Assembly: GCA_964632265.1 (NCBI GenBank)
Contig: CAZWCL010000001.1
Span: 1-29,270, forward strand
Length of the DNA stretch: 29,270 bases
Source of the DNA: an uncultured Hyphomicrobiaceae bacterium
Lineage (GTDB): Bacteria > Pseudomonadota > Alphaproteobacteria > Rhizobiales > Hyphomicrobiaceae
Reading direction: 5' to 3'
Shown: positions 3-22,524 of the stretch, one piece after another
Numbering within the stretch: position 1 is the first letter of the stretch
Layout of the letters: the number at the start of each line of letters is the position of its first letter
Notes under the pieces: model-generated
Told to the model about the DNA's origin: nothing
Databases searched by the model: none
What the model saw: the letters and a program-made list of their open reading frames with translations, nothing else
Made by a program: the position numbers and the translations under genes

Positions 3-917
3 TTTGAACTTCTCGTTCTCGGCGCGGCTGCCGGCGGCGGCCTGCCCCAATGGAATTGCGCAACATCCAACAGTGCAGCGGTCTGGCGGGGAGATCCGTC
101 AGTCGCGGTCGCAACGCAGTCCTCGGTCGCCGTCGGGACCGCGGGCCACTGGACTTTGCTGAACGCTTCGCCCGATATCCGACAGCAAATTCTATCTCAG
201 CCGAAACTGCATCCAACTGCGGTGCCGGGGGATCAGAAACGGCGCTCGCCGATCGGTGCCGTCCTTTTGACGGATGGCGATCTTGATCATATCACGGGAC
301 TCTTATCGTTACGGGAGCGGACCCCGTTCCGACTGATCGCAACCCAGACAACATTGTGCGGATTAGCGGCCAACCCGGTTTTCGATTCGCTCTCGCCAAG
401 CATTGTCGAACGTGAAACGGCAAACCTTGGTCAATGGGTTCATCTCGCAAATGGATTACGCGCACGACTGTTCGCGGTGCCCGGTAAAGTCCCGCTCTAT
501 CTGGAAAAAGCGCAATTGCCGTTGCAAACAGACGAGGTCACCGACGGAACGGTCGGGGTCGAGATGAACGATGGTGCAAGAAAATTTTTCTATGTTCCAA
601 GCTGCGCAAAAATGACCGCCGACTTAAAAGACAGAATTCAGGGTGCCGACCTGGTGCTGTTTGATGGCACGGTATTTCACGACGACGAACTGATCAAATG
701 TGGTGTCGGCGAAAAGACGGGGCGGCGCATGGGACATATGCCGATGTGCGGGCCAGGCGGATCGGTGGAGGCGTTTCGCAGCATCGATGTAGGCCGCAAA
801 ATCTATATCCATATAAACAACACCAACCCGGTCTGGCAGACGGAAAGCGAAGAACGGTTTTTATTGGAAGAAGCGGGCTGGGAGATCGCATATGACGGCC
901 TGGAGATTAGTCTGTGA
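3..917 (+). CDS. pqqB: PQQ biosynthesis protein PqqB (metallo-beta-lactamase fold), 5' end lies outside the window
   Basis: Frame is open from nt 3: FELLVLGAAAGGGLPQWNC...TQSSVAV...LLNASPDIRQQI, LTDGDLDHITGL, GHMP, HINNTNP are PqqB hallmarks. The ORF-track start at 156 is internal. Confidence 0.95.
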   Translation, partial: FELLVLGAAAGGGLPQWNCATSNSAAVWRGDPSVAVATQSSVAVGTAGHWTLLNASPDIRQQILSQPKLHPTAVPGDQKRRSPIGAVLLTDGDLDHITGLLSLRERTPFRLIATQTTLCGLAANPVFDSLSPSIVERETANLGQWVHLANGLRARLFAVPGKVPLYLEKAQLPLQTDEVTDGTVGVEMNDGARKFFYVPSCAKMTADLKDRIQGADLVLFDGTVFHDDELIKCGVGEKTGRRMGHMPMCGPGGSVEAFRSIDVGRKIYIHINNTNPVWQTESEERFLLEEAGWEIAYDGLEISL

Positions 918-1678
918 CCGACACCGACCCAATCAAAGAAAGACTGACGCCTGACGCGCTTGAGGCACATCTGCGCGCCATCGGCGAGGAACGCTATCAT
1001 CGCCGTCATCCGTTCAACGAACGCCTGCACCTCGGGCGGTGCACTTTGAATGAAGTTCGCGCATGGGCGCTCAACCGCTATTGTTACCAGCGCACCATAC
1101 CGCGTAAAGATGCAACCGTTCTTGCCCGTTTAGATGATGTTGAAGCCCGGCGCATCTGGCGCCGGCGGATCGTGGATCATGACGGTGATCCCGGAGACGC
1201 GCCGGAAGGCGGCCTTAGGCGCTGGCTTGCGCTCACGGATGAACTTGGTTTCGAACGGGATTACGTCGTTTCGCAGCAAGGCGTCCTGCCCGCCGTCCAA
1301 TACGCCAGTGAGGCTTATGTAAACTACGTCGCGTCTCAACCGGTCCTCGAAGCGATTTCCTCCAGCCTCACCGAGATGTTTTCGCCCACCGCGATCCAGG
1401 AGCGCGTCAGCGGCATGCTTCGCCACTACGATTTTATCACCCCGAACGCCTTGCGCTATTTCGAACACCGTATGAGCGAGGCACCGCGAGATGTCGATTT
1501 TGCCCTCGACTATGTCAAACGCAATGCGACAACTGCGGATCTGCAAAACCGCGTCAGCGCCGCTCTCCGTTTCAAGTGCGATGTGCTTTGGGCGCAGCTT
1601 GACGCGATCCATTACGCCTATGTGGTTGCTGAACCGCCGCCCGGTGCCTGGCGTCCTCCCTTGGCCTTGAATTCTTGA
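914..1678 (+). CDS. pqqC: Pyrroloquinoline-quinone synthase PqqC
   Basis: RYHRRHPF, WALNRYCYQ..IPRKDA, RIVDHDG, SSLTEMFSP, APRDVDFAL, FKCDVLWAQLD. GTG start overlaps the pqqB TGA (GTGA at 914-917). Confidence 0.95.
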   Translation: MTDTDPIKERLTPDALEAHLRAIGEERYHRRHPFNERLHLGRCTLNEVRAWALNRYCYQRTIPRKDATVLARLDDVEARRIWRRRIVDHDGDPGDAPEGGLRRWLALTDELGFERDYVVSQQGVLPAVQYASEAYVNYVASQPVLEAISSSLTEMFSPTAIQERVSGMLRHYDFITPNALRYFEHRMSEAPRDVDFALDYVKRNATTADLQNRVSAALRFKCDVLWAQLDAIHYAYVVAEPPPGAWRPPLALNS

Positions 1679-1698
1679 AAAGGGGGCAGTGCGAACGC

Positions 1699-3162
1699 AT
1701 GGATGGTTTATCGAGTTCGACCCGGGTGAGGATGCTGCACGGCACGCGCCTCCACTGGTGCGCGCGGCGGCAAGCGCCATACCTTATGGTCCCCGAAAGG
1801 GCGCTGGAGCTAACGCCGACGGCGCACGCCGTTTTGTCTTTGGTTGATGGCCGCAATTCGATCGGAGATATCGCGGCAAAACTCGCGACTAAATACGATG
1901 CTTCGCAGCCGCACATCGAGCGCGATGTCATGGCGCTGCTCCATCCCCTCATTAGCGATCGCAGTCTTGATTGCGGCAACAACGCTTCCTGCGGGCATAC
2001 CGCGACGGCTTCGAAGACAGCAATTCAGTCCCCCAAAATGTCTGAAGCAACGCCGAGACATCGGCAGGCATCCAGTAGGGCGCCCCGCCCCATCGCAATG
2101 CTCGCGGAGCTCACTCATCGCTGCCCGCTGAGCTGCCTTTATTGCTCAAACCCGGTGCAGCTTACCCGGCGAAGCTCGGAACTTGAGACAGAAGAGTGGG
2201 GCCGTGTCTTCGATCAGGCCGTCCAACTCGGGGTCCTGCAGGTTCACTTATCCGGTGGGGAGCCGGGAGCACGGCGCGATCTGGCCGAACTGGTTGAGGC
2301 AGCCTCTACATCGGGCCTTTATACCAACCTGATCACATCGGGTGTCGGATTGAAGCCGGATACCATAGACGCCTGTATCGACGCCGGCCTGGATCACATT
2401 CAGCTCTCAGTGCAGGCGGCAGATGAGGCAACCAGCAAAGCTGTATCCAGACGTTCGGGTGCCCTCGCGCTCAAGAAGCGGGTCGCCGATCAGGTCGTTT
2501 CACGGGGGCTGCCGCTGACGGTAAATGCCGTGGTTCATCGTTGTAATATCCACCAGTCCCAAGACCTTGTGAGCCTTGCCCTCGAGTGGGGCGCGCGGCG
2601 GATCGAGATTGCACATGCGCAGTATCATGGCTGGGCGCTTCTCAACGCCGAGACCCTGAAGCCAAACCTCGACCAGGTGATCACTGCGACCAGTGTCGTC
2701 GAACACGCGAGACGCGAATTAGCGGGTGTGCTCGCGATCGATTACGTAAAACCCGATCACTTCGCGCGGTATCCCAAAGCCTGCATGGGTGGATGGGGAC
2801 GTGTTGGACTCAATATCACGCCGGATGGAAAAGTGCTGCCATGCCATGCCGCCGAGACCATTCCCGGCATTGTGGCTGACACTGTCCGCGAGATGAGCCT
2901 CGAAGACATTTGGTTCGGGGGCGCTGCGTTCCAGATGTTTCGCGGCACGTCGTGGATGCAGGAGCCCTGCCGAAGCTGTCCGCGTCAAGAGCTTGATTTC
3001 GGTGGCTGCCGCTGTCAGGCCTTCGCGCTGACCGGCGATGCAGCAGCGGCCGATCCAACGTGCGAGCTTGTGTCTGGAGGGGCCGCCGTGGCTTTTTTGG
3101 AGGATGCCGCCCCCTCGAACAAGCATCCAATCTATCGGTCCATGTCCAGGAAACCTGGCTGA
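1699..3162 (+). CDS. pqqE: PqqD (RRE chaperone)-PqqE (radical SAM/SPASM peptide cyclase) fusion; alternative TTG start at 1675
   Basis: N-terminal ~90 aa are PqqD-like (LMVPERALEL..AHAVLSLVDG..SIGDIAAKLA.KY.A...IERDV). They continue with no stop into AELTHRCPLSCLYCSNP (CxxxCxxC), GGEP, and SPASM motifs CMGGWG, PCH, CRSC, GGCRC, DPTC. Confidence 0.9.
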   Translation: MDGLSSSTRVRMLHGTRLHWCARRQAPYLMVPERALELTPTAHAVLSLVDGRNSIGDIAAKLATKYDASQPHIERDVMALLHPLISDRSLDCGNNASCGHTATASKTAIQSPKMSEATPRHRQASSRAPRPIAMLAELTHRCPLSCLYCSNPVQLTRRSSELETEEWGRVFDQAVQLGVLQVHLSGGEPGARRDLAELVEAASTSGLYTNLITSGVGLKPDTIDACIDAGLDHIQLSVQAADEATSKAVSRRSGALALKKRVADQVVSRGLPLTVNAVVHRCNIHQSQDLVSLALEWGARRIEIAHAQYHGWALLNAETLKPNLDQVITATSVVEHARRELAGVLAIDYVKPDHFARYPKACMGGWGRVGLNITPDGKVLPCHAAETIPGIVADTVREMSLEDIWFGGAAFQMFRGTSWMQEPCRSCPRQELDFGGCRCQAFALTGDAAAADPTCELVSGGAAVAFLEDAAPSNKHPIYRSMSRKPG

Positions 3163-3801: not shown

Positions 3802-3838
3802 ACGCATAGGGGCCGACGATTGTCGGCTGGCGATGCGT
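3802..3838 (+). other. Stem-loop in the leader-cusB intercistronic region
   Basis: GCCGAC-gatt-GTCGGC (3812-3827) nested inside ACGCAT (3802-3807) / ATGCGT (3833-3838). Confidence 0.4.
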
Positions 3839-3883
3839 GCGAGCCAAATTTCTCGAAATCTTCGTCCAGCCAAAGGATGCACC

Positions 3884-5716
3884 ATGTGCAGCCAGTGTCA
3901 CCGCACACGGCGCCGCCGCGCAGCCGTCGTCGCCTGCTTGCCTATACTCCTGATTGCCCAGCCGTTAGGGACCGGCCTTGTCAATTCCGTTCACGGTGGA
4001 GGCTCCGACACGCCAACATACAGCACGCTCTTCGGGGGTGAGGCCTTTGCCGCAGAAGCCAAGGCTTCAACCGACCCAGACCTCATAAAATACACCTGTC
4101 CGATGCACCCCCACTACATTGCCGACGAGATGGGGACCTGCCCAATCTGCGGCATGGATCTGGTCAAGTTAGAGACCGGAGACTCGCTGGGCTCAACCGC
4201 AGGCGAGGGCCGCACCGTCATCACCGTTGCGTCCGAGACGATCCAGAACATGGGCGTGCGTCTCAGTAAGGCCGAACTGTCGAGCTTCGGCCGCGGGCTG
4301 CGCAGCTACGGCATCGTTCATGAAAACGAGCGCCGCCAGACGGAAGTCACCGCCCGTGTCGAGGGTTGGATCGAGGAACTCGAGGTTACAGCCGTCGGTG
4401 ATACCGTCAAAAAAGGCGATCTCCTCTTCAAACTCTACTCGCCGCAATTGATTATCTCGCAAGGCGACTTCCAGCGATCGCGCGGCAGCCGAGACCTTGC
4501 CGGTCGCGGGGAAGGCCAGTTGCGCTCTTTCGGCGTCCAGGAACAAGCCTTGGCGCAAATCAAGCGTCGCGAACGACCGATGCAGCTTGTGCCCTTCTAC
4601 GCTGAACAGGACGGTACGATTTCCGAACTCGCCTTGCGCCAGGGCACCTACGTCAAGCGCGGCATGATGCTCGCCAAGATCCAGGATTATTCAAACGTCT
4701 GGCTGCGTGTCGGCGTCCCGGAAAAGGATCTTGGCTTCATCTCCCGCAACACACCCGCTCTCGTTTCATTTCCCAATCTGCCGGGCCGTCAGGTGAGCGC
4801 CGTCGTCGACTACATCTACCCCACTGTGGACACCAAAACCCGGACCGGCCAGGTCCGGCTCGTCATCTCAAATGAGGACGGCATGATCCGTCCCGGCAGC
4901 TACGCCGACGTCACCTTCGAAGTTGGTTCCGAGAGGCGCCTCGCCGTACCCTCGGAAGCGGTCTTGCGCAGCGGCGCGGGTCGATACGTCGTCGTCTCTC
5001 TCGGTGAGGGCCGCTTTGAGCCCAGGCTGATCGAGGCGGGCCTGATTTCCAATGGACGGACTGAAGTCAAACAAGGCGTGCTTGAAGGCGAGGACGTCGT
5101 CGTCTCCGGTCAGTTCCTGCTTGATAGCGAAAGCGCGTTACGTGAGTCGTTCCGCAAGTTGCAGAAGCTGCAGGTGCCACTGTCGCTGCTGAAGCTGACC
5201 AAAAACGAATTCGCGATGTTCGATCACCTGATCGATGCCTCGCTCTACGTGCACGAAGCCCTGGTCGACGGCTACGACGTGATACCACAGCAACTCGACT
5301 CCGCGATCTCGATCAAAAAGCTGATGTGGCCTCGATACAAGAACACGCAACTTGCGTTCGTCCTTGTGGACGCAGTGAAGGCGCTCAAACAGGTCCAAAC
5401 CGCGCGTACGGAAAGTGAGGTCCAGGCGGCACTGACGACGCTCAACAACGCTCTACGTGCGTGGGTTTTGAAAGGGGCGCCGGAGCATTACAAGTCCAAG
5501 AAGCTTACGGTCTTCCGTGATCTTAAATCGGACCGCATCTGGTTCCAGGTGGGCGACAAACCTTTCAACCCGTTTGTGCGTGGCGGCGGCGAATTGATCG
5601 CTTATCCGGAGGCACAAAAACGGCCCGCGAATTCAGCTGCCAACGAGCCGTCCGATGTAACCGAGACCACTGCTGCGAGCACTGCTGCAAAACCGGGAGC
5701 GCACAGTGGCCACTGA
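3884..5716 (+). CDS. cusB: CusB-family RND periplasmic adaptor with N-terminal heavy-metal-binding domain and ~180-aa C-terminal extra domain
   Basis: YTCPMHP...CPICGMDL, ARVEGWIEEL, LYSPQL, IYPTVDTKTRTGQVR, LIRPGSYADV, SGQFLLDSES. Start 3884 chosen because AAGGA precedes it; the ORF-track start is 3833. Confidence 0.9.
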   Translation: MCSQCHRTRRRRAAVVACLPILLIAQPLGTGLVNSVHGGGSDTPTYSTLFGGEAFAAEAKASTDPDLIKYTCPMHPHYIADEMGTCPICGMDLVKLETGDSLGSTAGEGRTVITVASETIQNMGVRLSKAELSSFGRGLRSYGIVHENERRQTEVTARVEGWIEELEVTAVGDTVKKGDLLFKLYSPQLIISQGDFQRSRGSRDLAGRGEGQLRSFGVQEQALAQIKRRERPMQLVPFYAEQDGTISELALRQGTYVKRGMMLAKIQDYSNVWLRVGVPEKDLGFISRNTPALVSFPNLPGRQVSAVVDYIYPTVDTKTRTGQVRLVISNEDGMIRPGSYADVTFEVGSERRLAVPSEAVLRSGAGRYVVVSLGEGRFEPRLIEAGLISNGRTEVKQGVLEGEDVVVSGQFLLDSESALRESFRKLQKLQVPLSLLKLTKNEFAMFDHLIDASLYVHEALVDGYDVIPQQLDSAISIKKLMWPRYKNTQLAFVLVDAVKALKQVQTARTESEVQAALTTLNNALRAWVLKGAPEHYKSKKLTVFRDLKSDRIWFQVGDKPFNPFVRGGGELIAYPEAQKRPANSAANEPSDVTETTAASTAAKPGAHSGH

Positions 5717-8700
5717 TCCCCAGTCAGACAACGGGACTGGTCATGATATCGCGGGCCATGACCCGACGCTCTCTGGCGTCGCCAAGATCATCGACTGGTC
5801 GGTGCGCAACCAGTTGCTCGTCATCATGGGGGCTCTGGCTCTCATCGTTGCCGGCTGGATGTCCCTCAAACAGACGCCGCTCGATGCCATCCCGGACCTA
5901 ACCGATACTCAGGTCATCATCCGCACGGAGTTTTCAGGCCAGTCGCCGCAGATCGTCGAGGATCTCGTCACCTACCCGCTGTCAACCGCCATGCTCGGCT
6001 TGCCGAAAACCAAGTCTGTCCGCGGGTTTTCGATGTTCGGGACGAGTTTCGTCTACGTCATCTTCCAGGACGGCGTCGACCAGTATTGGGCACGATCCCG
6101 AGTCATCGAGGCATTGTCGACGACCGGCGCCAATCTTCCTGCCAATGCCTCTCCGCGTATTGGCCCCGATGCAACCGGCGTCGGCTGGGTTTTCCAGTAC
6201 GGCTTGGTCGACAAGACCGGCAAGCGCGATCTCGCAGAGCTGCGCTCGTTGCAGGACTGGTTCGTGAAATTCGAACTCGCGACGGTCCCAGGCGTATCCG
6301 AAGTCGCCTCCGTCGGCGGCTTTGTGAAGGAATATCAGGTCCTCGTCGACCCAAACCGGCTGCGCGCCTACAACGTCCCGCTCGATCGCATAATCTCAGC
6401 CATCAAATCCGCAAGTGGAGAGGTTGGCGGCCGGGTAATCGAGCAGGCGGAAACCGAACTCATCGTACGCTCGACCGGATACATTCAAACACTAGAACAA
6501 CTTGGCGATGTGGTTGTTTTTTCCGAGAACGGAACGCCAGTAAAACTTGATGATATCGCCCGCCTCGTGGAAGGTCCGGAGCTACGCCGCGGCGTGGTCG
6601 AGCTCAACGGCGAAGGCGAAGTGGTTGGCGGCATTGTCGTCATGCGTTCCGGCGCCAACGCGCTCACTGTTATCGAAGGCATCAAAAGCAAGCTTGAGGA
6701 GATCAAGCAAGGACTGCCCGAGGGCGTCGAATTCGTCACCGTCTATGACCGCGCGCCGCTAATCGAAGGCGCAGTCAAATACCTTGAGCACAAGTTGCTC
6801 GAGGAAGCCTTGGTCGTTTTCCTCGTGTGTCTCATCTTCCTGCTACACGCACGGTCGGCGCTCGTCGCAATCATTACCCTGCCGCTCGGCATCCTCGGCG
6901 CCTTCATTGTGATGGCGCAGCAGGGCATCACGGCAAACATCATGTCGCTCGGCGGAATCGCTATTGCCATCGGCGCAATGGTCGATGCCTCGATTGTCAT
7001 GGTCGAAAACGCACACCGAAAACTTTCCGACATGGGCGACGAGGCGACTCCGGACGAACGGCGCGAAGCGCTGTTGATATCGGCCAAAGAAGTCGGCCCG
7101 GGCCTATTCTTTTCGCTGCTGATCATCACCGCGTCTTTCCTGCCGGTTTTCGCGCTGACCGGGCAGTCGTTCAAGCTGTTTGCGCCACTCGCCTACACCA
7201 AAACCTATGCCATGGCATTCGCGTCGGTCCTGTCAATCACGGTTGTGCCGGTTCTGATGCTGTGGCTAATCCGAGGCAAAATCCGGGGCGAAATGGCAAA
7301 CCCCATAAACTGGGTTTTCGTGCAGCTCTACCGGCCCATCATTTGGCTCGCCCTCAAGGCCCGTTGGCTCACTATCGCTCTCTCGCTCCTGGTGCTGGCG
7401 TCGGTCGCCTATCCGTTGTCGAAGATCGGCACCGAGTTCATGCCTGCGCTCTATGAGGGTGAATTGCTCTACATGCCGACAACATTGCCGGGCGTGTCGA
7501 TCAGTAAAGCCAAGGAAGTTCTGGCGCAAACCAACCGGCTCATCAAAACCGTGCCCGAGGTCGAGCGCGTGTTCGGCAAGGTCGGCCGTGCCGATACCGC
7601 TACCGACCCTGCGCCAATCTCGATGATTGAAACCTGGGTCCGTCTGAAGCCCAAAGAGGAATGGCGCGACGGGATGAATGTCCAGGACCTCGTCAAGGAA
7701 TTGGATCAACGAACCAAACTTCCGGGCCTCGTGAACTCCTGGGGCTACCCCATCAAGACCCGCATGGACATGATTTCGACCGGCATTCGTACACCGATCG
7801 GGGTCAAGATATCTGGCGGCGACTTGAAGGAGATCGAGCGCATTGCACTTCAGCTCGAGGGGGCGATCAAGGACATACCGGGCACTCGATCTGTTTTTGC
7901 TGACCGGGTTGTCGGCGGTAAATATCTCGAGATCAAACCCGATCGGCGCGAGCTTGCCCGCCGCAACATCGACCTCGCGACCTTCCAGTCGGTCATTCAG
8001 ACGGCGCTTGGCGGCATGCGGCTTGCCGAAAGTGTCCAGGGGCGCGAGCGCTACAATATCATGTTGCGTTACGACCGGCCGTTCCGCGAGACGCCCGAAC
8101 AGTTGGCAGAGGTCCTCATTCCGACGCCAACAGGGCAGCACATCCCGCTCGGCGAATTGGCCACGATCGAGGTGACCGACGGACCACCGATGCTGCGCTC
8201 GGAAAACGCACGGCTTACCGGGTGGGTATTCGTCGACATCACAGGCCGCGATATCGGGACCTATGTGGCCGAAGCTGAAAAGGTCGTGCGCGAGCAAATC
8301 ACATTGCCGTCCGGCTACGCCATCACCTGGTCGGGACAGTTCGAGCAGATGATCGAGGCGCGGGAACGCCTCTCGATTGCAATCCCTACGGCCATCTTGA
8401 TCATCTTCGTCTTGCTGATGCTGCACTTTGGCCGATTCGACCGGACTGCGATCATTATGCTGTCGCTGCCTTTCGGACTGATTGGCGGCCTTTGGGCAGT
8501 GTACCTTGCCGGCTACAATATGTCGGTCGCCGTCGCCGTGGGCTTTATCGCTCTCGGCGGTATCGCGGTCGAAACGGCAGTGGTGATGCTGCTCTACATC
8601 GACCAGCGTGTGCGCGAATTCCCGCCAAAAAGCAGGCAGGAATTGCTCGATGCGATTATTGCGGGTGCCGTCCAACGGGTCCGTCCGAAATTGATGACGG

Positions 8701-8939
8701 TGCTCGTCATCATCGCGGGCCTTCTACCAATCTTCTTTACCGACGGCATCGGCTCAGACGTGATGCGGCGCATTGCTCTGCCGATGGTCGGCGGCATGAC
8801 GTCGACAACCGTGCTCACGCTGATCGTCATTCCGGTTATCTATTATCTTTGGGAAAGCCGGCGTTTCAGACCGACCGGCGCCGCGCAAGAACCAACACCT
8901 GAACCGCCACCAGATCCGGTCCTTCAACCGGCTGAATGA
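5706..8939 (+). CDS. cusA: CusA-type heavy-metal efflux RND transporter (Cu+/Ag+)
   Basis: PLDAIPDLTDTQVII, GPDATGVGWVFQY, GAMVDASIVMVEN, RVRPKLMT. The three Met positions of the E. coli CusA metal site appear retained (LLYMPTT, PISMIET, RMDMIST). Confidence 0.95.
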   Translation: MATDPQSDNGTGHDIAGHDPTLSGVAKIIDWSVRNQLLVIMGALALIVAGWMSLKQTPLDAIPDLTDTQVIIRTEFSGQSPQIVEDLVTYPLSTAMLGLPKTKSVRGFSMFGTSFVYVIFQDGVDQYWARSRVIEALSTTGANLPANASPRIGPDATGVGWVFQYGLVDKTGKRDLAELRSLQDWFVKFELATVPGVSEVASVGGFVKEYQVLVDPNRLRAYNVPLDRIISAIKSASGEVGGRVIEQAETELIVRSTGYIQTLEQLGDVVVFSENGTPVKLDDIARLVEGPELRRGVVELNGEGEVVGGIVVMRSGANALTVIEGIKSKLEEIKQGLPEGVEFVTVYDRAPLIEGAVKYLEHKLLEEALVVFLVCLIFLLHARSALVAIITLPLGILGAFIVMAQQGITANIMSLGGIAIAIGAMVDASIVMVENAHRKLSDMGDEATPDERREALLISAKEVGPGLFFSLLIITASFLPVFALTGQSFKLFAPLAYTKTYAMAFASVLSITVVPVLMLWLIRGKIRGEMANPINWVFVQLYRPIIWLALKARWLTIALSLLVLASVAYPLSKIGTEFMPALYEGELLYMPTTLPGVSISKAKEVLAQTNRLIKTVPEVERVFGKVGRADTATDPAPISMIETWVRLKPKEEWRDGMNVQDLVKELDQRTKLPGLVNSWGYPIKTRMDMISTGIRTPIGVKISGGDLKEIERIALQLEGAIKDIPGTRSVFADRVVGGKYLEIKPDRRELARRNIDLATFQSVIQTALGGMRLAESVQGRERYNIMLRYDRPFRETPEQLAEVLIPTPTGQHIPLGELATIEVTDGPPMLRSENARLTGWVFVDITGRDIGTYVAEAEKVVREQITLPSGYAITWSGQFEQMIEARERLSIAIPTAILIIFVLLMLHFGRFDRTAIIMLSLPFGLIGGLWAVYLAGYNMSVAVAVGFIALGGIAVETAVVMLLYIDQRVREFPPKSRQELLDAIIAGAVQRVRPKLMTVLVIIAGLLPIFFTDGIGSDVMRRIALPMVGGMTSTTVLTLIVIPVIYYLWESRRFRPTGAAQEPTPEPPPDPVLQPAE

Positions 8940-9402: not shown

Positions 9403-9639
9403 GTCCCTGCCGGTTCCCGGTCGCGACTGCTCATGGCGTGGCCGGGAACCTGGTGCCGACGCGAAACCGAACCGACCGGTTGAAACAGCTCAACTGATGC
9501 ACAGCGCCAATGTAATCCTTGCGGCCTCGGTTGAGCAGCGTTTGACTGATATCAATGCTTGGCTCTTGTTTCGCCGGTAGCGTTCATTGAAAGTAAAATG
9601 CCGAAACGGAATTGCTGGCCCGACTGGGCAAGAGGCTTC

Positions 9640-10650
9640 ATGCGGTGGGACTTGAAACTGGTCGCTCTCGGTGCGGCAATCTTGCTGGTCGCTGGTTTTC
9701 TCATCTTTGGCACTGCCGAAGATCAGGACGTGCCTGACGGGATTTCCTACGGCAACGGGCGGATCGAGGCGGTGCAGATCGATGTCTCGACGAAGATTGG
9801 AGGCCGCGTCGCGCACGTCTTCAAGGCTGAAGGCGATCTGGTCAAACCCAAAGAAAAGCTGGCGGAAATAGAATCGTCACAGCTCCGCGCTCAACTTCAG
9901 CGCGCCGAAGCGGAAATAGCGAGTGCCAGGAGTCAGGTCGCCCAGGCCGAGGCGCAGGTTGCCCAGGTCGAGGCCCAACTGAAGCTTGCAGAACGCGAAC
10001 TGGCTCGCGCGCAAAAGTTGGTCAGCCAAGGTCACACCAGTCAGGAAGTCTACGATACACGACTGAGCCAACGCGATGTTGCCCTCGCAAACCTTGCTGC
10101 GGCCAAGGCCATCGTCGTCTCGCGCAAGCGTGGTGTTGATGCGGCCTTGGCGGCCAAGGCCGAATTGCAAACCCAGATCGACGATACGGTCTTGATCTCG
10201 CCAACGGTTGGGCGCGTGCTGTTTCGCCTCACTGAGCCGGGAGAGGTGATACCTGCCGGCGGCAAGGTTGTCACGTTGGTCAATCTCGCCGACGTCTACA
10301 TGGAGATTTTCCTACCGGCGGGAGCGGCTCACCGGCTCGCGATCGGTTCCGAAGCTCGAATAGTTGTTGACGGGGCAGACTTTGCGGTGCCGGCGACCGT
10401 CTCGTTCGTTTCCCCTCAGGCACAGTTCACACCGAAGCAGGTAGAGACGCGGGATGAGCGTGAGAAGCTGATGTTTCGCGTGAAGGTTCGCGTGCCGCCG
10501 GACTTGGTCCATGAGCACATAGATTTCGTCAAGACCGGCATTCGCGGCGTGGCCTACGTGCGTCCGGGTCAAAATCCGCCACCCTGGCCCGCGTGGCTCG
10601 AGAGGCGTTTCCAGACGCCGGAAAGGGCAGCTGAAGGGGCGCAGTCGTGA
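9640..10650 (+). CDS. HlyD/YhiI-family membrane fusion protein of an ABC exporter
   Basis: N-terminal TM, GNGRIEA..IDVSTKIGGRV, coiled coil, VSPQAQFTPKQVETRDEREKLMFRVKV. GAGG before ATG 9640 (track start 9559). Confidence 0.88.
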   Translation: MRWDLKLVALGAAILLVAGFLIFGTAEDQDVPDGISYGNGRIEAVQIDVSTKIGGRVAHVFKAEGDLVKPKEKLAEIESSQLRAQLQRAEAEIASARSQVAQAEAQVAQVEAQLKLAERELARAQKLVSQGHTSQEVYDTRLSQRDVALANLAAAKAIVVSRKRGVDAALAAKAELQTQIDDTVLISPTVGRVLFRLTEPGEVIPAGGKVVTLVNLADVYMEIFLPAGAAHRLAIGSEARIVVDGADFAVPATVSFVSPQAQFTPKQVETRDEREKLMFRVKVRVPPDLVHEHIDFVKTGIRGVAYVRPGQNPPPWPAWLERRFQTPERAAEGAQS

Positions 10651-13415
10651 ATACGAATGCATCCGAGCCCGTCGTTCGAACGCGCGGCCTCTCCCACCGG
10701 TATGGCAATACACTCGCCGTGAACAACGTAGAGATCGAACTCCCGCGTGGATTAGCAGTTGGCCTGATCGGACCGGACGGGGTGGGCAAGTCGACGCTGA
10801 TGGGGCTTATTGCCGGGGCTCGCCGCCTCCAGCAGGGTGGCCTCCAGGTGCTTGGCGCCGACCTGGCCTCAAGTAAAGATCGTTACCGCCTATGCCCGCG
10901 CATCGCCTACATGCCGCAAGGTCTCGGTAAAAACCTTTATGCCGATCTGAGCATCCGCGAAAATCTCGACTTCTTCGGACGACTTTTCGGTCAGGGCAAG
11001 ACCGAGCGGAGGCAACGGATCGAACGCCTGACCCAGGCTACAGGGCTGCATCCATTCCTGGGGCGGCCGGCCGGCAAGCTGTCGGGGGGCATGAAGCAAA
11101 AGCTTGGGCTTTGCTGTGCCCTGATCCACGATCCTGATCTGCTCATTCTCGACGAACCGACCACCGGCGTCGATCCCCTGTCGCGTCGCCAGTTCTGGAC
11201 GCTGATTTCTACAATCCGCGAGGAACGGCCCGACATGAGCGTGCTGGTCTCGACGGCCTATATGGACGAGGCGACTGAGTTCGACTGGTTGATCGCAATG
11301 AACGATGGCTGCGTGATCGGAACCGGCGAACCAAAAGACTTAATGACCCGCACCGGCACCGATGATCTCGAATCAGCATACGTGGCGCTGCTGCCGGAGG
11401 GGGCAGGACGCGGTCAGAAATCGCTGGAGTTGCCGCCACGCACACATCAGGATGGCGGCCCCGTAATCACGGCGACCAACCTCACCCGCCGTTTTGGCGA
11501 TTTTACCGCTGTCTCGAAGGTCGATCTGACGATAGAGCGTGGCGAAATCTTCGGGTTCCTCGGCTCCAATGGCTGCGGCAAGACCACAACGATGAAGATG
11601 CTGACGGGACTGCTGCCACCGAGTGACGGTAAGGCCTATCTCTTCGGCAAGGAAGCCGATGCCGGCAGCATCGAGATGCGCCGCCGCGTCGGCTACATGT
11701 CGCAATCTTTCTCCCTCTATGGCGAACTGACGGTGCGCCAGAACTTCGAGTTGCACGTCCGGCTATTTCATCTGCCGGCGGATGCGGCGGTCGAACGCAT
11801 CCGAGAATTGGCGGATCGGTTCGACCTCACGAAGCACATGAACGACGTGTCCGGCCGCTTGTCGCTCGGCCAGCGCCAACGCATGTCGCTTGCAATTGCC
11901 ATCCTGCACCGCCCCGAAATGCTGATACTCGACGAGCCGACATCTGGTGTCGACCCGATTGCACGCGACCGCTTCTGGGAACTGCTGATCGAACTGTCTC
12001 GCGAGGAAAACGTTACAATTTTCATTTCAACGCACTTCATGAACGAGGCTATGCGTTGCGACCGCATCTCTCTCATGCATGCGGGCGAAGTGTTGGCAAT
12101 GGGGGCGCCTCGCGAACTCATCGAAAAGCGTGGTGCTGCTTCGCTCGAAGATGCATTCATCGACTACATGAGCGATGCAATCGCCGACCCAGCAGAGGCA
12201 GGGGAGAAAGATCTCCAGGTCGCGGTGGCGCCGGCAATCCAGGCAGGCGTCGTGGGTAAGGAGACGGCTCCCGGACCGCGAGCCGTCGGGCTCGATACAC
12301 GCCGTATGCTTGCCTACAGCTACCGCGAAACAATGGAGGTGCTGCGTGATCCCGTCCGGCTGGGCTTCGCCTTCATCGGCAGCACAATTTTGCTATTCAT
12401 CTTCAGCTACGGCATCACCACCGACGTCGACCGTTTGCGGTTCGCGGTTCTCGACGGCGATCGCAGTCCGATGAGCCGTGCCTACATCGCGCAGTTTGGC
12501 GGATCGCAATATTTCGAAGGCAGGCGGCTCGCAACAAACGAAGCCGAACTGGCGAGACTTCTGGCGACACATGCTGTGGAAGTTGCAGTCGAGATACCAC
12601 CGGCCTTTGGCCGGGATATCTCGCGTGGCGGCAGGCCGACCGTCTCGATATGGGTCGATGGCGCCAACACCACACGGGCTGCGAGTATGGTGTCTTATGT
12701 CCAGGGCGTACACGATCGCTTTCTCGCAAAGCGGGACAACGAGACCCGCCTGACCGCTCGGGGCGATCCGTCAGTCTCAATCGAGATGCGCTTTTTGTAT
12801 AATCCGTCATTCGAGAGCATCTATGCGGTCGCTCCGGGCGTCCCCGCGATGCTGTTGATCCTATTTCCGGCGATCCTTATGGCCGTCAGCGTCGCGCGTG
12901 AGAAAGAGATCGGCACGATTACAAACTTCTACGTAACGCCGACTCGGCGCCTTGAATTTCTGGTCGGCAAGCAGTTGCCCTATATCGCCCTGACGATGGT
13001 CAATTTCGCCATCATGACGACTGCGGTGGTTGTGATCATTGGCGTGCCGTTCAAAGGCAGCCTCGTGAGCCTGACGATTGGTGCGTTGCTTTATGCGATC
13101 GTTACAACCGGCGTCGGTCTCGTGATTGCTACATTCGTCTCTAGCCAAGTCGCCGCCGTGTTCGCCGCCGCGATCATTACAATGATGCCGACCATGCAAT
13201 TCTCGGGGTTTCTGCAGCCGGTCTCAGCCCTTGAAGGCGGCGCGCGCGTGATGGGCATGTTGTGGCCGACTACGTACTACATGCACATGAGTGTGGGCGC
13301 CGTCACCAAGGGGCTCGGCATCGCCGACCTGGCCGGCGATATGTTGGCGCTTGCCGCATTCATCCCCGTCTTCCTCTCCATCGCCATCATTGGCCTTCGC
13401 ACGCAGGAGCGCTGA
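10647..13415 (+). CDS. rbbA: RbbA-type protein: two ABC ATPase domains plus an ABC-2 permease
   Basis: GPDGVGKST/LSGGMKQK/LILDEP and GSNGCGKTT/LSLGQRQR/LILDEP, followed by a multi-TM region with REKEIGTITNFYVTP. GTG start overlaps the previous stop. Confidence 0.9.
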   Translation: MNTNASEPVVRTRGLSHRYGNTLAVNNVEIELPRGLAVGLIGPDGVGKSTLMGLIAGARRLQQGGLQVLGADLASSKDRYRLCPRIAYMPQGLGKNLYADLSIRENLDFFGRLFGQGKTERRQRIERLTQATGLHPFLGRPAGKLSGGMKQKLGLCCALIHDPDLLILDEPTTGVDPLSRRQFWTLISTIREERPDMSVLVSTAYMDEATEFDWLIAMNDGCVIGTGEPKDLMTRTGTDDLESAYVALLPEGAGRGQKSLELPPRTHQDGGPVITATNLTRRFGDFTAVSKVDLTIERGEIFGFLGSNGCGKTTTMKMLTGLLPPSDGKAYLFGKEADAGSIEMRRRVGYMSQSFSLYGELTVRQNFELHVRLFHLPADAAVERIRELADRFDLTKHMNDVSGRLSLGQRQRMSLAIAILHRPEMLILDEPTSGVDPIARDRFWELLIELSREENVTIFISTHFMNEAMRCDRISLMHAGEVLAMGAPRELIEKRGAASLEDAFIDYMSDAIADPAEAGEKDLQVAVAPAIQAGVVGKETAPGPRAVGLDTRRMLAYSYRETMEVLRDPVRLGFAFIGSTILLFIFSYGITTDVDRLRFAVLDGDRSPMSRAYIAQFGGSQYFEGRRLATNEAELARLLATHAVEVAVEIPPAFGRDISRGGRPTVSIWVDGANTTRAASMVSYVQGVHDRFLAKRDNETRLTARGDPSVSIEMRFLYNPSFESIYAVAPGVPAMLLILFPAILMAVSVAREKEIGTITNFYVTPTRRLEFLVGKQLPYIALTMVNFAIMTTAVVVIIGVPFKGSLVSLTIGALLYAIVTTGVGLVIATFVSSQVAAVFAAAIITMMPTMQFSGFLQPVSALEGGARVMGMLWPTTYYMHMSVGAVTKGLGIADLAGDMLALAAFIPVFLSIAIIGLRTQER

Positions 13416-13417
13416 TC

Positions 13418-14545
13418 GTGTGGCGACGCGTCTCGAACATCTATTGGCTTGGCACCAAGGAGGTGCGTAGTGCACTTAGGGACGGCGTGATGGTGTTTCT
13501 GATCCTCTGGGCGTTTGGGCCGGGTATTACGGAACGGTCACGTGCGCTCAAAGACAATGTCAGCAACGCCAGCGTAGCATTCGTCGATGAGGATCGCTCG
13601 GCCCTGTCACGAAGCTTGATGCGGGCCGTGCTGCCACCACACTTCCAGCCAGCGGTTCTAATCGAAGCGGACGAGATAGATGAGGCCGTCGACCAGAGCC
13701 GCTTCACATTCGTCATCGTCATTCCACCCCGGTTCGAGGCTCAAATCCGCAAGGGCCTGAAACCCGAAATCCAGCTCAATATCGATGCAACGGCAATCAT
13801 CCAGGCAGCCACCGGGGCTGGCTATCTGCAGCAGATCTTGGTCAAGGAAGTCGCACGCCATGTTGCGCGGTCGGATCCGGTCAGCGTCACGGCAGTGGAT
13901 CTGGTAACGCGGCGAGCCTTCAATCCGAACGGCAATCACATCTGGTTTCAGGCTGTTGTTGCCTTACTGGATCAGATCTCTACGTTGACGATCGCGCTTA
14001 CGGGGGCGGCGCTTCTGCGCGAGCGTGAGCATGGTACGATCGAACACTTGCTAGTCATGCCGTTATCCGCCTTCGAGATCGCAATGGCGAAAGTACTCGC
14101 CAGCGGGCTCATTATCCTTATAGCATTTTCCGTCTCTCTAACTTTTATTGTTGAGACTTGGCTCGGCGTACCGATTGCCGGTTCGCGGTTGCTATTGATC
14201 TTCGGCACAATTCTTTATTTGTTTTCCGCGGCCGCGATCGGCGTATTTCTTGGCACGATCGCGCGCACGATGGCGCAGTTCGCTTTGCTGCTCTTGATGG
14301 TGATCATGCCAATGATGATGCTTTCCGGCGGCATGACACCGATAGAAAGCCAGCCCGAGTGGTTACAACCGCTGACCAATTTCCTGCCGTCGCGCCACTA
14401 TATGTCGTTTGCGCAGGCGATCGTCTTTCGCGGCGCCGGGCTCGACATCGTGTGGCGGGAATTTCTCGCGGTTGCCGTGCTAGGCGGGATCTTCCTGGCG
14501 AGTAGCATCTTACTCTTCCGCCGCTCGATTAGCGTTGGCCGGTGA
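13418..14545 (+). CDS. YhhJ-type ABC-2 permease
   Basis: VSNIYWLGTKEVRS, LLREREHGTIEHLLVMP, MLSGGMTPIESQP, six predicted TMs. Real start is probably GTG 13418, as track start 13262 overlaps rbbA. Confidence 0.88.
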   Translation: MWRRVSNIYWLGTKEVRSALRDGVMVFLILWAFGPGITERSRALKDNVSNASVAFVDEDRSALSRSLMRAVLPPHFQPAVLIEADEIDEAVDQSRFTFVIVIPPRFEAQIRKGLKPEIQLNIDATAIIQAATGAGYLQQILVKEVARHVARSDPVSVTAVDLVTRRAFNPNGNHIWFQAVVALLDQISTLTIALTGAALLREREHGTIEHLLVMPLSAFEIAMAKVLASGLIILIAFSVSLTFIVETWLGVPIAGSRLLLIFGTILYLFSAAAIGVFLGTIARTMAQFALLLLMVIMPMMMLSGGMTPIESQPEWLQPLTNFLPSRHYMSFAQAIVFRGAGLDIVWREFLAVAVLGGIFLASSILLFRRSISVGR

Positions 14546-20372: not shown

Positions 20373-20723
20373 CTAATTCGTTTGAGCTTCAGGCAGCTGC
20401 ATCGCCGCGGCCTGGTCAATCGTCAGGTTGATGCGATCGTCACCCGCATTGTACTGATCTTTCCCGACCTCCACCGTCTTTGCGCCGATGCCGAGAGCCT
20501 GGTCCATTTCAACCTGCAACTTGTCGCCCTCGACGCTCTTGACAGTGCCGATCTGCACGCCACCCGAGCTGAAGACCGGCCAGTCCGTATAGGACTGAGT
20601 CTGACCAGACTGCGTTTGGGTCGCCTGACCGGACTGTCCCATCGTACCGCTTTGCTGAGCGGCGACCGGCGCAGCGCCAAGGACCGTTGCGATCGCGATA
20701 GCTGTAATGAGGTTCTTAGTCAT
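20373..20723 (-). CDS. Small secreted PRC-barrel-like protein
   Basis: Signal peptide MTKNLITAIAIATVLGAAPVAA, Q/T/G-rich linker, then WPVFSSGGVQIGTV and LGIGAKTVEV. Start 20723 preferred over track start 20882. Confidence 0.7.
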   Translation of the reverse strand: MTKNLITAIAIATVLGAAPVAAQQSGTMGQSGQATQTQSGQTQSYTDWPVFSSGGVQIGTVKSVEGDKLQVEMDQALGIGAKTVEVGKDQYNAGDDRINLTIDQAAAMQLPEAQTN

Positions 20724-20780
20724 CTCATGATTACCTTTTACCAAGTGAGGCGACAACATTTCGTCGTCGCATACCGCCCG

Positions 20781-20806
20781 AACTAAAGACGTCAGCGTTT
20801 GGTTCC
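20781..20806 (-). promoter_or_regulatory. Putative EcfG general-stress promoter
   Basis: Minus strand GGAAC-N17-AGTT, ~58 nt upstream of the PRC-barrel start. Confidence 0.55.
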
Positions 20807-20929
20807 GCTGAAAACTGAACAAGCAAACGAGGACGTTGGCGGCTGTCACCCCGCAGGTGGCAGGCTTGCAAAGCCCGACCAAAATGAACGAATATTAAAT
20901 TTCGGACCGAGGATCGCACGAGGAAAAAC

Positions 20930-21652
20930 GTGTTGTTCTGCTCTCTGGATAGGATGCGCGTGCCGCTGACTACGGCGCTTTTCGCTACTGCTGTTCTGGC
21001 AGTATCCTTTGCGGCCGAACGTTTCGATCTTGCCGTCTACGCGCTCAGCTTCTGGCACTATTTCGTCTATGCGCTGGCATTCTGTTTCCGCAGTGTTGAT
21101 CACACCGCCTTCAAACGCGATGCGATCCTGCTCAAAGCGCTATCGATGACGGTCCTCATAGCCGTGGTTGTCCAAACGAGTCCGAACCCTGCGTCGATCG
21201 CAGTCGCGGCTGCCGGTTTTGGCCTCAACCTGTGGGCGGCGTCGGTGCTTGGTACGGACCGCACGTACTATGGTGTCGAGGTCAGAGGAATGCCGGTCGA
21301 ATGGTCGACCGCGATGCCGTTTTCCATCGTTCGCCACCCAATGCTGATCGGCAATATGGTAGCTTACGGCGGGCTTCTCCTTGATGACGAGCTCCGTGAT
21401 ATCTGGTGGCCCCTCATAGCGCTTCACGTTGCCAGCAATTTTCTCGTGTTGCTGATGGAAGGCCTTGACAGCATAGACCGATCGCGGGCCCGATTGTCGC
21501 TGTGGGGCAGCCTATTGGCCGGAACTCTTCTGCTCATCGTGTGTTTTGCGAACGTTATGCCTTTCGCCCTTCTGAGCGCGATTATTATTATTGCATTCGG
21601 CGCAATCCTTATCGAAAATTATACCGAGACGACCAGGAACCGGCGTCCTTAG
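20930..21652 (+). CDS. Integral-membrane PEMT/ICMT-like methyltransferase (putative)
   Basis: Multi-TM protein with LGTDRTYYGVEV and MPFSIVRHPMLIG, resembling the G.Y.G...PF..RHPM motif of membrane SAM methyltransferases. GAGGA RBS before GTG. Confidence 0.65.
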   Translation: MLFCSLDRMRVPLTTALFATAVLAVSFAAERFDLAVYALSFWHYFVYALAFCFRSVDHTAFKRDAILLKALSMTVLIAVVVQTSPNPASIAVAAAGFGLNLWAASVLGTDRTYYGVEVRGMPVEWSTAMPFSIVRHPMLIGNMVAYGGLLLDDELRDIWWPLIALHVASNFLVLLMEGLDSIDRSRARLSLWGSLLAGTLLLIVCFANVMPFALLSAIIIIAFGAILIENYTETTRNRRP

Positions 21653-21675
21653 ACAGCAACTCAAAGAGATACGTT

Positions 21676-22524
21676 ATGACGGACCGAAGCGACTCAACTA
21701 TCGACTATGCGCCGCGGAAGAGTTCGGGGACCAAAGATATATTTGCGGCACGCGTTGGCAGATTTCACGATAGTCATTTGCAGGCCTTGATGGACGAACT
21801 CTCCGCATGGGTCGAGTCGACCTACCGGGATGAACTTGCGCACCGCCCTTCGAAGCACGTCTACATTCAAAACCTTCCCGCGCCAATTATCGCCATGATT
21901 GACCGGCTACGCGATAGCGATGTTATCAACTCTGCAATAATGGATCAGTTTTCCTCATCTTCGGTACTCAAACCGATGAAGGCAACCGACGAACTATATA
22001 TATCGCATTACAATAAGGACTATGGTGGAGATCACGGACTCTTCACGAAACATTACGATGGGAACCTGCGTTTCATGCCAGTTGGCACCGTAGTGCGGGC
22101 GCTGATCTATTTGCAATCCGACGCGACGTACACGGTCGTATTCGCAAACAGCAAGGTCGAAAAGGCGTTTCAGTCGTACGATTTCGGCCTGCTTGACTTC
22201 CACAACGAGCTGCACTGGGTGGAGGGAGAGTACAACCCCGATGACCAGCAGCGTATTCTTCTCAAGTGCAATTATCTGATTGCGCCAAGGAATGCGCTAT
22301 GGCTTACGCGCGGATTGCTGGCCCTCAACGAAGCCGTCTTCTACATCGTGAAGTCCGCGATGGAATACTCGAAGAGCCCCCGCACGCCCGCTCAGTATCT
22401 TGTGGGCTATACGTGCAATGTCATGCGCCTAGCCAACAACGTCAGCCCGATACTGCCAATTGTCTTGGTCGGAACCTTGTTTGGAGCAATCGGCTGGGCA
22501 CTGAGTTCGCTCCTGCCAAGCTAG
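21676..22524 (+). CDS. Hypothetical protein with HxD...H triad (Fe(II)/2OG dioxygenase-like) and C-terminal membrane anchor
   Basis: KHYDG (H at 22051), ELHWV (H at 22213), downstream RILLK, and a hydrophobic C-terminus. Start 21676 preferred because track start 21502 overlaps the upstream gene. Confidence 0.55.
   Translation: MTDRSDSTIDYAPRKSSGTKDIFAARVGRFHDSHLQALMDELSAWVESTYRDELAHRPSKHVYIQNLPAPIIAMIDRLRDSDVINSAIMDQFSSSSVLKPMKATDELYISHYNKDYGGDHGLFTKHYDGNLRFMPVGTVVRALIYLQSDATYTVVFANSKVEKAFQSYDFGLLDFHNELHWVEGEYNPDDQQRILLKCNYLIAPRNALWLTRGLLALNEAVFYIVKSAMEYSKSPRTPAQYLVGYTCNVMRLANNVSPILPIVLVGTLFGAIGWALSSLLPS

Follow-up and report, generated by a model that had tools for sequence, protein, structure and literature searches.

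What might a membrane methyltransferase and an unannotated oxygenase, encoded side by side in a bacterial genome, accomplish together? The question is raised by two adjacent open reading frames, ORF1 and ORF2, in a 29,270-nt stretch of DNA from an uncultured Hyphomicrobiaceae bacterium, which in its full length is referred to here as the window. The earlier note on this DNA had described two co-directional genes 23 nt apart, the first for a PEMT/ICMT-like membrane protein and the second for a protein resembling Fe(II)/2-oxoglutarate (2OG) enzymes, and had proposed that together they modify a membrane lipid or its head group. The description proves correct and the proposal is supported; the spacing is exact, with 23 nt between the ORF1 stop codon and the ORF2 ATG. 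Betaine lipids stand in for phospholipids under phosphorus scarcity and count among the major membrane lipids in marine algae and many bacteria. At the gene level, only the synthesis of diacylglyceryl-trimethylhomoserine (DGTS) by BtaA/BtaB or BTA1 is understood (PMC10685587). We find that homologs of the pair are repeatedly encoded near these DGTS synthases. The pair probably modifies a phosphorus-free membrane lipid, and the analysis makes it fairly probable that ORF1 and ORF2 form a translationally coupled membrane module that tailors the betaine-lipid head group in the DGTS pathway.

Scanning one genome per species yielded 134 homologous loci, 80 of which were kept; three fetched earlier brought the set to 83. 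An ORF1 homolog lies directly upstream of an ORF2 homolog on the same strand in 74 of these 83 loci, or in 74 of the 78 where the contig leaves room, which bears out the co-occurrence looked for since the earlier note. Paired loci span at least five phyla, with Alpha- and Betaproteobacteria, Planctomycetota, Verrucomicrobiota and Acidobacteriota represented; cultured carriers include Reyranella soli NBRC 108950, Desertibaculum subflavum SYSU D60015 and a Pirellulales strain. A 4-nt overlap joins the genes in 43/75 loci, and in 69/75 they are at most 30 nt apart, a spacing typical of translational coupling, with the proteins made in a fixed ratio. ORF1 and ORF2 are an almost obligate gene pair. 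Among the remaining nine loci, the oxygenase gene is at the contig edge in five, and the PEMT gene is truly absent in four (L001, L007, L016 and L017). In these four alphaproteobacterial loci (positions 5233-10164 of L001) the oxygenase gene stands amid operons for ATP-binding cassette (ABC) transporters with a phosphonate-binding protein, beside a gene for a hexapeptide-repeat transferase; in L001 a class I methyltransferase gene adjoins it as well. Phosphonate-type ABC transporter clusters such as these are typical of phosphorus scavenging, and the PEMT-less loci may represent a variant module using a different methyltransferase. Eight loci (L019, L036, L041, L049, L057, L062, L072 and L075) carry species labels of metagenome-assembled genomes (MAGs) that misfit their content, such as ‘Bordetella parapertussis’, ‘Enterobacteriaceae’, ‘Asaia bogorensis’ and ‘Rhizobium sp. 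Q54’ on freshwater bins; their taxon labels are not to be taken at face value.

The two proteins also occur as single chains. Bacterial PEMT-oxygenase fusions are represented by P0242/P0403, found on 17 contigs in an ordinary bacterial neighborhood, and by P0255, whose cluster includes a protein from a Bdellovibrionales MAG. Apparent fusions inside the fetched bacterial loci were rejected: the long ORFs are in-frame upstream extensions, and the two domains never share one stop-free frame. Conserved antisense ‘families’ in the ORF clustering of the loci (clusters 2, 3, 6 and 8) were likewise set aside as artifacts of high-GC DNA. A word-limited search with a profile built from the eukaryotic proteins yielded 67 sequences of about 560-700 amino acids and gave names for a fraction of them. 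These carry an Mpo1-like N-terminus, the oxygenase and the PEMT domain in one protein, the reverse of the order in the bacterial fusions. The algal and protist fusions that the earlier note had mentioned are thus present, and bacteria and eukaryotes together show both domain orders; that the oxygenase and PEMT halves share one chain in eukaryotes was correct, but a third, Mpo1-like domain had not been foreseen. Carriers of the tri-domain protein among stramenopile algae are the diatom Leptocylindrus danicus, the Parmales Triparma and Tetraparma, the pelagophyte Aureococcus and the brown algae Pylaiella littoralis and Nemacystus decipiens. The protein is also found in the prasinophyte Pterosperma, the dinoflagellate Oxyrrhis marina, the choanoflagellates Choanoeca and Salpingoeca, the diplonemid Flectonema, Corallochytrium, Ancoracysta and the chytrid Gorgonomyces. 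In P0450 (864 amino acids) it is extended by a C-terminal α/β hydrolase of lipase/lysophospholipase type. The Aureococcus protein P0462 (1023 amino acids; L087) is about 400 residues longer than its relatives and has no clear extra domain.

The third partner is also encoded in bacteria, where about a quarter of the loci carry the Mpo1-like part as a separate downstream gene. In 23 loci, mostly labeled Reyranella or Rhodospirillales, the gene directly after the oxygenase encodes a very conserved 234-residue membrane protein. In all 14 members tested, the match to Mpo1-like proteins stayed below threshold (best E 1.6e-4); the N-terminal membrane domain of the eukaryotic fusions shows weak Mpo1-like/DUF962 similarity that exceeds the Pfam threshold only in Oxyrrhis. 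Profile-profile comparison aligned the H..N..LH motif of the 234-residue protein with the N-terminus of the eukaryotic fusions, weakly (E 0.005, hhalign probability 6.8%). Mpo1, an Fe(II)-dependent dioxygenase, catalyzes the oxidative decarboxylation of 2-hydroxy fatty acids, and the yeast protein (YGL010w, DUF962) is described in Pfam as a hydroxy-fatty-acid dioxygenase. What is shared with it is an Mpo1-like domain within the module or a gene beside it; in contrast to Mpo1 itself, most of the module's Mpo1-like parts match below the Pfam threshold, and none is adjacent in the window, where the 234-residue protein as query found no match. Judged from these comparisons, the full module would have three parts, of which the window holds two. 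In L076 (8875-12182) and about 20 similar loci of Reyranella/Rhodospirillales type (for example L027, L052, L058 and L074), a conserved gene set follows the pair: the 234-residue Mpo1-like protein, an opposite-strand 575-residue class-III aminotransferase extended at its N-terminus, and a phosphatidylserine decarboxylase.

Our main new result is the linkage of this module to btaA and btaB. In 8 of the 83 bacterial loci, the pair is at most a few kb away from btaA (DUF3419) and btaB, in three arrangements and two phyla. The pair is divergent from a metallophosphoesterase-btaA-btaB unit in five planctomycete-type loci, where the metallophosphoesterase may be a PlcP-type phospholipase C; it is convergent with btaA/btaB in two planctomycete loci; and in a Vicinamibacterales MAG all four genes run in one direction, as a PEMT-oxygenase-btaA-btaB operon. 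As there is at most one btaA gene per genome, chance would place it within 8 kb of the pair in well under 1% of genomes. On the eukaryotic side, the tri-domain gene has a BTA gene beside it or close by in three of eight genomic contexts, head-to-head in L085 (a diatom-like contig) and L092 (the brown alga Pylaiella littoralis) and in tandem in L094; the contexts from Aureococcus, Triparma and Gorgonomyces, L088/L089 and the short contig L095 showed no BTA neighbor. In P0344 (1231 amino acids), oxygenase, PEMT, DUF3419 and a BtaB-type methyltransferase form a single chain, and this or a nearly identical protein (at least 90%) is recorded on three contigs. Bacterial gene order, eukaryotic gene order, a fusion and lipid-type partners are four independent kinds of evidence; the three arrangements in bacteria, the three BTA neighbors in eukaryotes and the fusion are together no coincidence. 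The membrane-lipid head group proposed as substrate in the earlier note is much better grounded now because of the btaA/btaB linkage in bacteria and eukaryotes and the P0344 fusion, though it is still something we infer. In the Pirellulales MAG locus L034 (4071-6038, minus strand), btaA is spread over three overlapping ORFs, all with DUF3419-type BtaA matches; the split probably reflects assembly frameshift errors or a pseudogene.

BtaA and BtaB alone suffice for DGTS synthesis (PMC10685587), and the module must therefore act before, after or beside them. These synthases and BTA1, which make DGTS from diacylglycerol and S-adenosylmethionine (SAM), have in common with the module their genomic neighborhoods, one shared polypeptide and the need for SAM; they differ in belonging to protein families unrelated to ORF1 and ORF2, and the window is without btaAB. 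The linkage would fit catabolism of DGTS equally: the module might degrade or recycle the lipid when phosphate returns, for example through oxidative N-demethylation by the Fe/2OG enzyme, a reaction that such enzymes commonly perform on N-methyl groups. We regard this as very unlikely, since fusing a SAM methyltransferase to a demethylase would be futile, and the P0344 synthase fusion and membership of a btaAB operon point to co-expression with synthesis.

Consistent with its earlier description as PEMT/ICMT-like, ORF1 matched the Pfam PEMT family PF04191 at 26.8 bits (cut-off 25; E 7.6e-6) over residues 90-169, and its AlphaFold2 model is all-helical with a predicted local distance difference test (pLDDT) score of 91. 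Five distinct hydrophobic segments (Kyte-Doolittle at least 1.6) indicate a polytopic protein. We collected 231 homologs, and PF04191 is present in all 120 among the matches listed. Across 35 sequences the R111-T-Y-Y-G-x-E117 motif and residues H136, P137, M138, G141 and E177 are invariant; the RHPM.IG motif and the downstream invariant Glu are presumably the region that binds SAM in ICMT structures. The N-terminal block that had struck the earlier note as unusual is real and family-specific. In this region Y37, W42, Y47, A50, F61 and K69 are invariant among the 35 bacterial homologs, and the block reappears in the eukaryotic fusions as HY..Y...FKRDA.FFK; it thus appears to mark the methyltransferase subfamily that works with the oxygenase. 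With the PEMT/ICMT clan (PEMT/Opi3/Cho2 and ICMT/Ste14), ORF1 shares a hidden Markov model match above threshold, a polytopic helical architecture and the RHPM.IG motif with its Glu. It departs from the clan in the conserved block at residues 37-69 outside the Pfam core, in a distance between TYYG and RHPM that is about 15 residues longer, in its obligate oxygenase partner, and in having no Foldseek match to any solved structure. From these profile and motif comparisons, ORF1 would constitute a distinct subfamily of PEMT/ICMT membrane SAM-dependent methyltransferases.

The family assignment also suggests a simpler role, in which ORF1 is a genuine phosphatidylethanolamine (PE) N-methyltransferase that makes phosphatidylcholine (PC), and the target of ORF2 is either a phospholipid or its acyl chain, which it hydroxylates, or something unrelated. 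This role fits the name of the Pfam family and UniRef names such as ‘phosphatidyl-N-methylethanolamine N-methyltransferase’ on eukaryotic members, but database names of this kind are automatic transfers. In 18 Reyranella-type loci the phosphatidylserine decarboxylase gene lies 3-4 kb off; however, the opposite-strand aminotransferase gene stands between it and the pair, and its proximity is confined to one group of related genomes, so that shared ancestry explains it. PE methylation requires no oxygenase, yet the pairing is near-obligate and extends to fusion, and the repeated linkage is to btaAB rather than to PC-synthesis genes. This role is, in our estimate, unlikely.

With a limit as loose as E <= 1, neither Pfam nor NCBIfam gave a match to ORF2, which hence belongs to no described 2OG family (2OG-FeII_Oxy, PhyH, TauD, P4H and others). 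A word-indexed search yielded 857 homologs, in 219 clusters when grouped at 50% identity. Those listed, 120 in number, share 59-85% identity with ORF2, except for P0001 at 100%, and all named ones are hypothetical; their sources are Alphaproteobacteria, Burkholderiales, Planctomycetota, Verrucomicrobiota and Acidobacteriota. A search of a plasmid collection with ORF2 gave no match. AlphaFold2, supplied with 37 sequences, produced a model (pLDDT 77.5, predicted template modeling score 0.76) with a helical N-terminal part, a β-sandwich at residues 97-205 and three C-terminal helices; model residue numbers are +1 relative to those of ORF2. Foldseek gave this model 101 PDB matches at E <= 0.001; of the 50 listed, nearly every one is annotated as a 2OG-dependent oxygenase. 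The double-stranded β-helix (DSBH) fold on which the reading of the earlier note depended is thus predicted. The matches include 8zyb, P3H1, PHD2, HygX, AviO1, EvdO1, AsqJ, FtmOx1 and OkaE; those listed have E values of 7e-6 to 1.6e-4 and template modeling scores of about 0.4, modest because the query holds a disordered N-terminus and a helical tail. Profile searches of ORF2 against PDB sequences gave chance matches only, and an hhalign comparison with a PHD2 sequence gave no significant alignment (E 0.41).

The H-x-D...H...R spacing recognized in the earlier note is retained from bacteria to protists. In a joint alignment of 12 bacterial and 14 eukaryotic oxygenase domains, 16 positions are invariant, including Y108, H126, D128, H180, R193 and K197. 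H110 and H176 do not vary among the bacterial sequences but do among the eukaryotic ones, several of which have N or S in place of H176; this singles out H126-x-D128...H180 as the putative iron triad. We take the context of H126-Y-D128, Y..G....H.D, to resemble that of prolyl hydroxylases. The H-x-D loop has low pLDDT in the model, and the geometry of the triad is inferred. Either R193 or K197 is a candidate binder of the 2OG C5 carboxylate. The C-terminal transmembrane anchor named in the earlier note corresponds to residues 262-280, the only segment of ORF2 with a Kyte-Doolittle value above 1.6. Upstream of it, residues 206-257 (22291-22446) form two helices that hold one of the most conserved stretches of the family, with N218, F222, V225-K226, AMEYSKSP at 228-235, C247-N248, R251 and N254-N255; we know of no 2OG oxygenase that has such a C-terminal helical element. 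These helices may serve as the contact surface for the methyltransferase or cover the lipid head group like a lid. With PHD2, P3H1, HygX/AviO1/EvdO1, AsqJ and FtmOx1, ORF2 shares the DSBH fold, the H-x-D...H triad and a basic residue one strand after the distal His. Unlike the prolyl-hydroxylase and PhyH-like groups, to which it has no detectable sequence similarity, it closes with three helices, the last a transmembrane anchor, and carries the invariant AMEYSKSP, and its conservation is extreme, at about 60% identity across phyla. As judged from the model, ORF2 represents a new, membrane-anchored sequence family within the known Fe(II)/2OG oxygenase fold.

With the prolyl hydroxylases PHD2 and P3H1 among the structural neighbors of ORF2, and ICMT, of the same clan as ORF1, being a protein methyltransferase, the substrate might not be a lipid at all: a membrane-proximal protein could undergo prolyl-hydroxylase-like oxidation and ICMT-like carboxyl methylation, or the pair could act on a soluble betaine or quinone. 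Small-molecule oxygenases (HygX, AviO1, AsqJ and FtmOx1) are equally represented among those neighbors, however, and no conserved candidate substrate protein is encoded near the pair. The btaAB linkage, the lipase-domain fusion and the Mpo1-like partner all indicate lipids, and a non-lipid substrate is in our view the least probable of the alternatives.

Methylation combined with hydroxylation is a known decoration pattern of ornithine lipids, and the module might in the same manner N-methylate and hydroxylate another amino lipid (an ornithine or glycine lipid), as OlsG does with OlsC/OlsE. Carriers of the module include Planctomycetota, known for trimethylornithine lipids (PMC7828035), and the ornithine-lipid enzymes (OlsG and the hydroxylases OlsC, OlsD and OlsE), likened here by description, follow the same logic of methylating and hydroxylating a phosphorus-free lipid. 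The conserved neighbors of the loci comprise no ols-like family, olsB/olsA-like acyltransferases included; the linkage that was found is to btaAB. To our knowledge, ornithine-lipid genes have not been reported as an obligate pair or as fusions, unlike ORF1 and ORF2, and we do not know the eukaryotic carriers as makers of ornithine lipids. We consider a substrate of this kind quite improbable.

For the betaine-lipid module that we favor, the likely substrate would be DGTS, the product of BtaA/BtaB, or its precursor diacylglyceryl-homoserine. ORF2, held at the membrane by its C-terminal helix, would oxidize a head-group C-H, by hydroxylation or otherwise, using O2 and 2OG. ORF1 would use SAM to methylate a heteroatom in that head group, which could be N, a carboxylate O or a hydroxyl O. 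The gene coupling and the fusions suggest that the two proteins act as a complex, which in many organisms would be joined by the third, Mpo1-like (DUF962) membrane protein of Fe-dioxygenase type. On the sequence evidence ORF2 may hydroxylate or desaturate, and ORF1 may methylate N or O.

Several observations weigh against this assignment. Searches of the 29-kb window by tblastn with BtaA, BtaB and PlcP queries gave no match, and the neighbors of the pair in the window (pyrroloquinoline quinone (PQQ), metal efflux, ABC-2 and sugar-acid genes) are not lipid-related. Adjacency to btaAB is limited to the eight bacterial loci described above, none of which is in the alphaproteobacterial clade closest to the window. 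A Pho box (CTGTCAT-N4-CTGTCAT, up to three mismatches) occurs in 1 of 74 upstream regions, the same as in the shuffled background, with an E. coli-type consensus from which that of these taxa may differ. The best Foldseek match of the ORF1 model in the PDB has an E value of 1.2, with no ICMT among the matches, and the ORF1 profile matched no PDB sequence; because structural and PDB-sequence searches gave nothing, its family membership rests on the profile match and the motifs. Finally, Aureococcus carries the tri-domain protein despite being reported to make diacylglyceryl-carboxyhydroxymethylcholine (DGCC), without DGTS and BTA1 (PMC3237563).

We also put forward, tentatively, a more specific product, which we hold possible but doubtful: the PEMT-like enzyme and the Fe/2OG oxygenase, with the Mpo1-like protein where present, may convert DGTS to its isomer diacylglyceryl-hydroxymethyl-trimethyl-β-alanine (DGTA), or contribute to another betaine lipid of this kind, for instance DGCC. 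DGTS is thought to become DGTA by way of decarboxylation and recarboxylation, with the enzyme and mechanisms described in 2023 as ‘still unknown’, and of DGCC synthesis nothing was known (PMC10685587). Our literature search on DGTA/DGCC synthases and on Mpo1/DUF962 with betaine lipids found no later enzyme and no description of the module, a recent report in a subscription journal being possible. Two oxygenase-type domains and a SAM enzyme are a reasonable toolkit for the rearrangement. In addition, several carriers belong to groups with DGTA, and the lipid has been measured in their relatives: it is found in brown algae (PMC9892843), in diplonemids (PMC8611851) and in the prasinophyte Ostreococcus (PMC7407893), and it is reported in a bacterium, Chloracidobacterium (PMC12816986). 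The Aureococcus case counts against DGTA as a product as well, as does the lack of Phaeodactylum, Thalassiosira and Ectocarpus among the 67 eukaryotic hits, with the limits on words and names of that search. Specific schemes for the rearrangement (a 1,2-carboxyl shift, or decarboxylation followed by addition of a SAM-derived carbon and oxidation) were considered and are not put forward.

The features of the pair are collected in Table 1. A GTG at 21502, given as the ORF2 start in the ORF list, was rejected: it overlaps ORF1, the N-termini of homologs lie near the ATG, and P0001 has 282 residues. Consensus scans around the pair for sigma-70-like promoters and intrinsic terminators gave nothing above background.

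Table 1. Coordinates of the ORF1/ORF2 pair and its sequence features in the window
Feature	Position	Strand	Details
Shine-Dalgarno-like GAGGA	20919..20923	+	6 nt 5' of the ORF1 GTG; direct sequence reading
ORF1	20930..21652	+	240 aa; GTG start; ATG at 20957 is an alternative start
ORF1 family-specific N-terminal block, residues 40-69	21047..21136	+	SFWHYFVYALAF...FKRDAILLK; outside the Pfam PEMT core
ORF1 PEMT core, residues 90-169	21197..21436	+	R111-T-Y-Y-G-x-E117, R135-H-P-M-L-I-G141; E177 just 3' of the core
Intergenic spacer	21653..21675	+	23 nt; AAGAGA ribosome-binding-like motif inside
ORF2 (‘X’)	21676..22524	+	282 aa; ATG start; 100% identical to database protein P0001
H126-Y-D128	22051..22059	+	Proposed proximal His and carboxylate of the facial triad; invariant in 26 sequences
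H180	22213..22215	+	Proposed distal His of the triad; beginning of a predicted β-strand (181-184 in the model)
R193...K197	22252..22266	+	Candidate 2OG C5 carboxylate binders; invariant; model strand 194-205
ORF2 C-terminal transmembrane anchor, residues 262-280	22459..22515	+	IVLVGTLFGAIGWALSSLL; Kyte-Doolittle 2.02; model helix 260-280

The pair is an isolated bicistron in the window, the rest of which is without lipid or phosphorus genes. Its neighbors encode PQQ synthesis, metal efflux, ABC-2 transport, a sugar-acid dehydratase and dehydrogenase, a DUF502 protein, a thiamine pyrophosphate enzyme, a short-chain dehydrogenase/reductase and a ZIP transporter. On the plus strand, the PQQ cluster (156-3162) comprises pqqB (Lactamase_B_2), pqqC (TENA/THI-4/PQQC) and a 495-residue ORF that joins PqqD to the radical-SAM/SPASM PqqE; a pqqA gene would be expected before position 156. 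The cluster is followed by genes for a CusB-like membrane-fusion protein with a heavy-metal-binding domain and an AcrB/CusA-type resistance-nodulation-division pump (3833-8939, plus strand), and for an HlyD-like protein and two ABC-2 transporter proteins, one of them fused to two ATPase domains (9559-14545, plus strand). An ORF on the minus strand (20373-20882) is divergent from ORF1 and shares with it an intergenic region of about 200 nt; its probable start is MTKNLITAIAI, and it encodes a small protein with a signal-peptide-like N-terminus, a stretch rich in Q, S, T and G, and no Pfam match.

That ORF2 is AT-richer than its surroundings, as the earlier note had seen in a single line, is true of the gene as a whole: its GC content is 0.527 against 0.587 for the window, at the 2nd percentile among equal-sized windows. 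GC at third codon positions is 0.65 in ORF2, and neighboring genes span 0.57-0.81. The ORF2 homolog lies below its locus in GC in 59 of 67 other loci. Given the normal third-position value and the family-wide low GC, the AT-richness is no sign of a foreign origin; it stems from the abundance of Tyr, Asn, Lys, Phe, Asp and Ile in the protein and not from horizontal transfer into this genome.

Together, these data define an unannotated conserved oxygenase family, its obligate methyltransferase partner, an Mpo1-like third partner and a repeated link to DGTS synthases in bacteria, brown algae and diatom-like genomes. They also name candidate genes in a small bacterial form that is open to direct experiment. 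If the module does lead to DGTA, the window would hold the algal enzyme in minimal form, divided over two genes, and soil and freshwater bacteria would make DGTA-type lipids far more widely than has been recognized. Even with another product, a lipid-tailoring module that extends from Acidobacteriota to choanoflagellates would represent new membrane biochemistry and a possible marker for environmental lipidomics.

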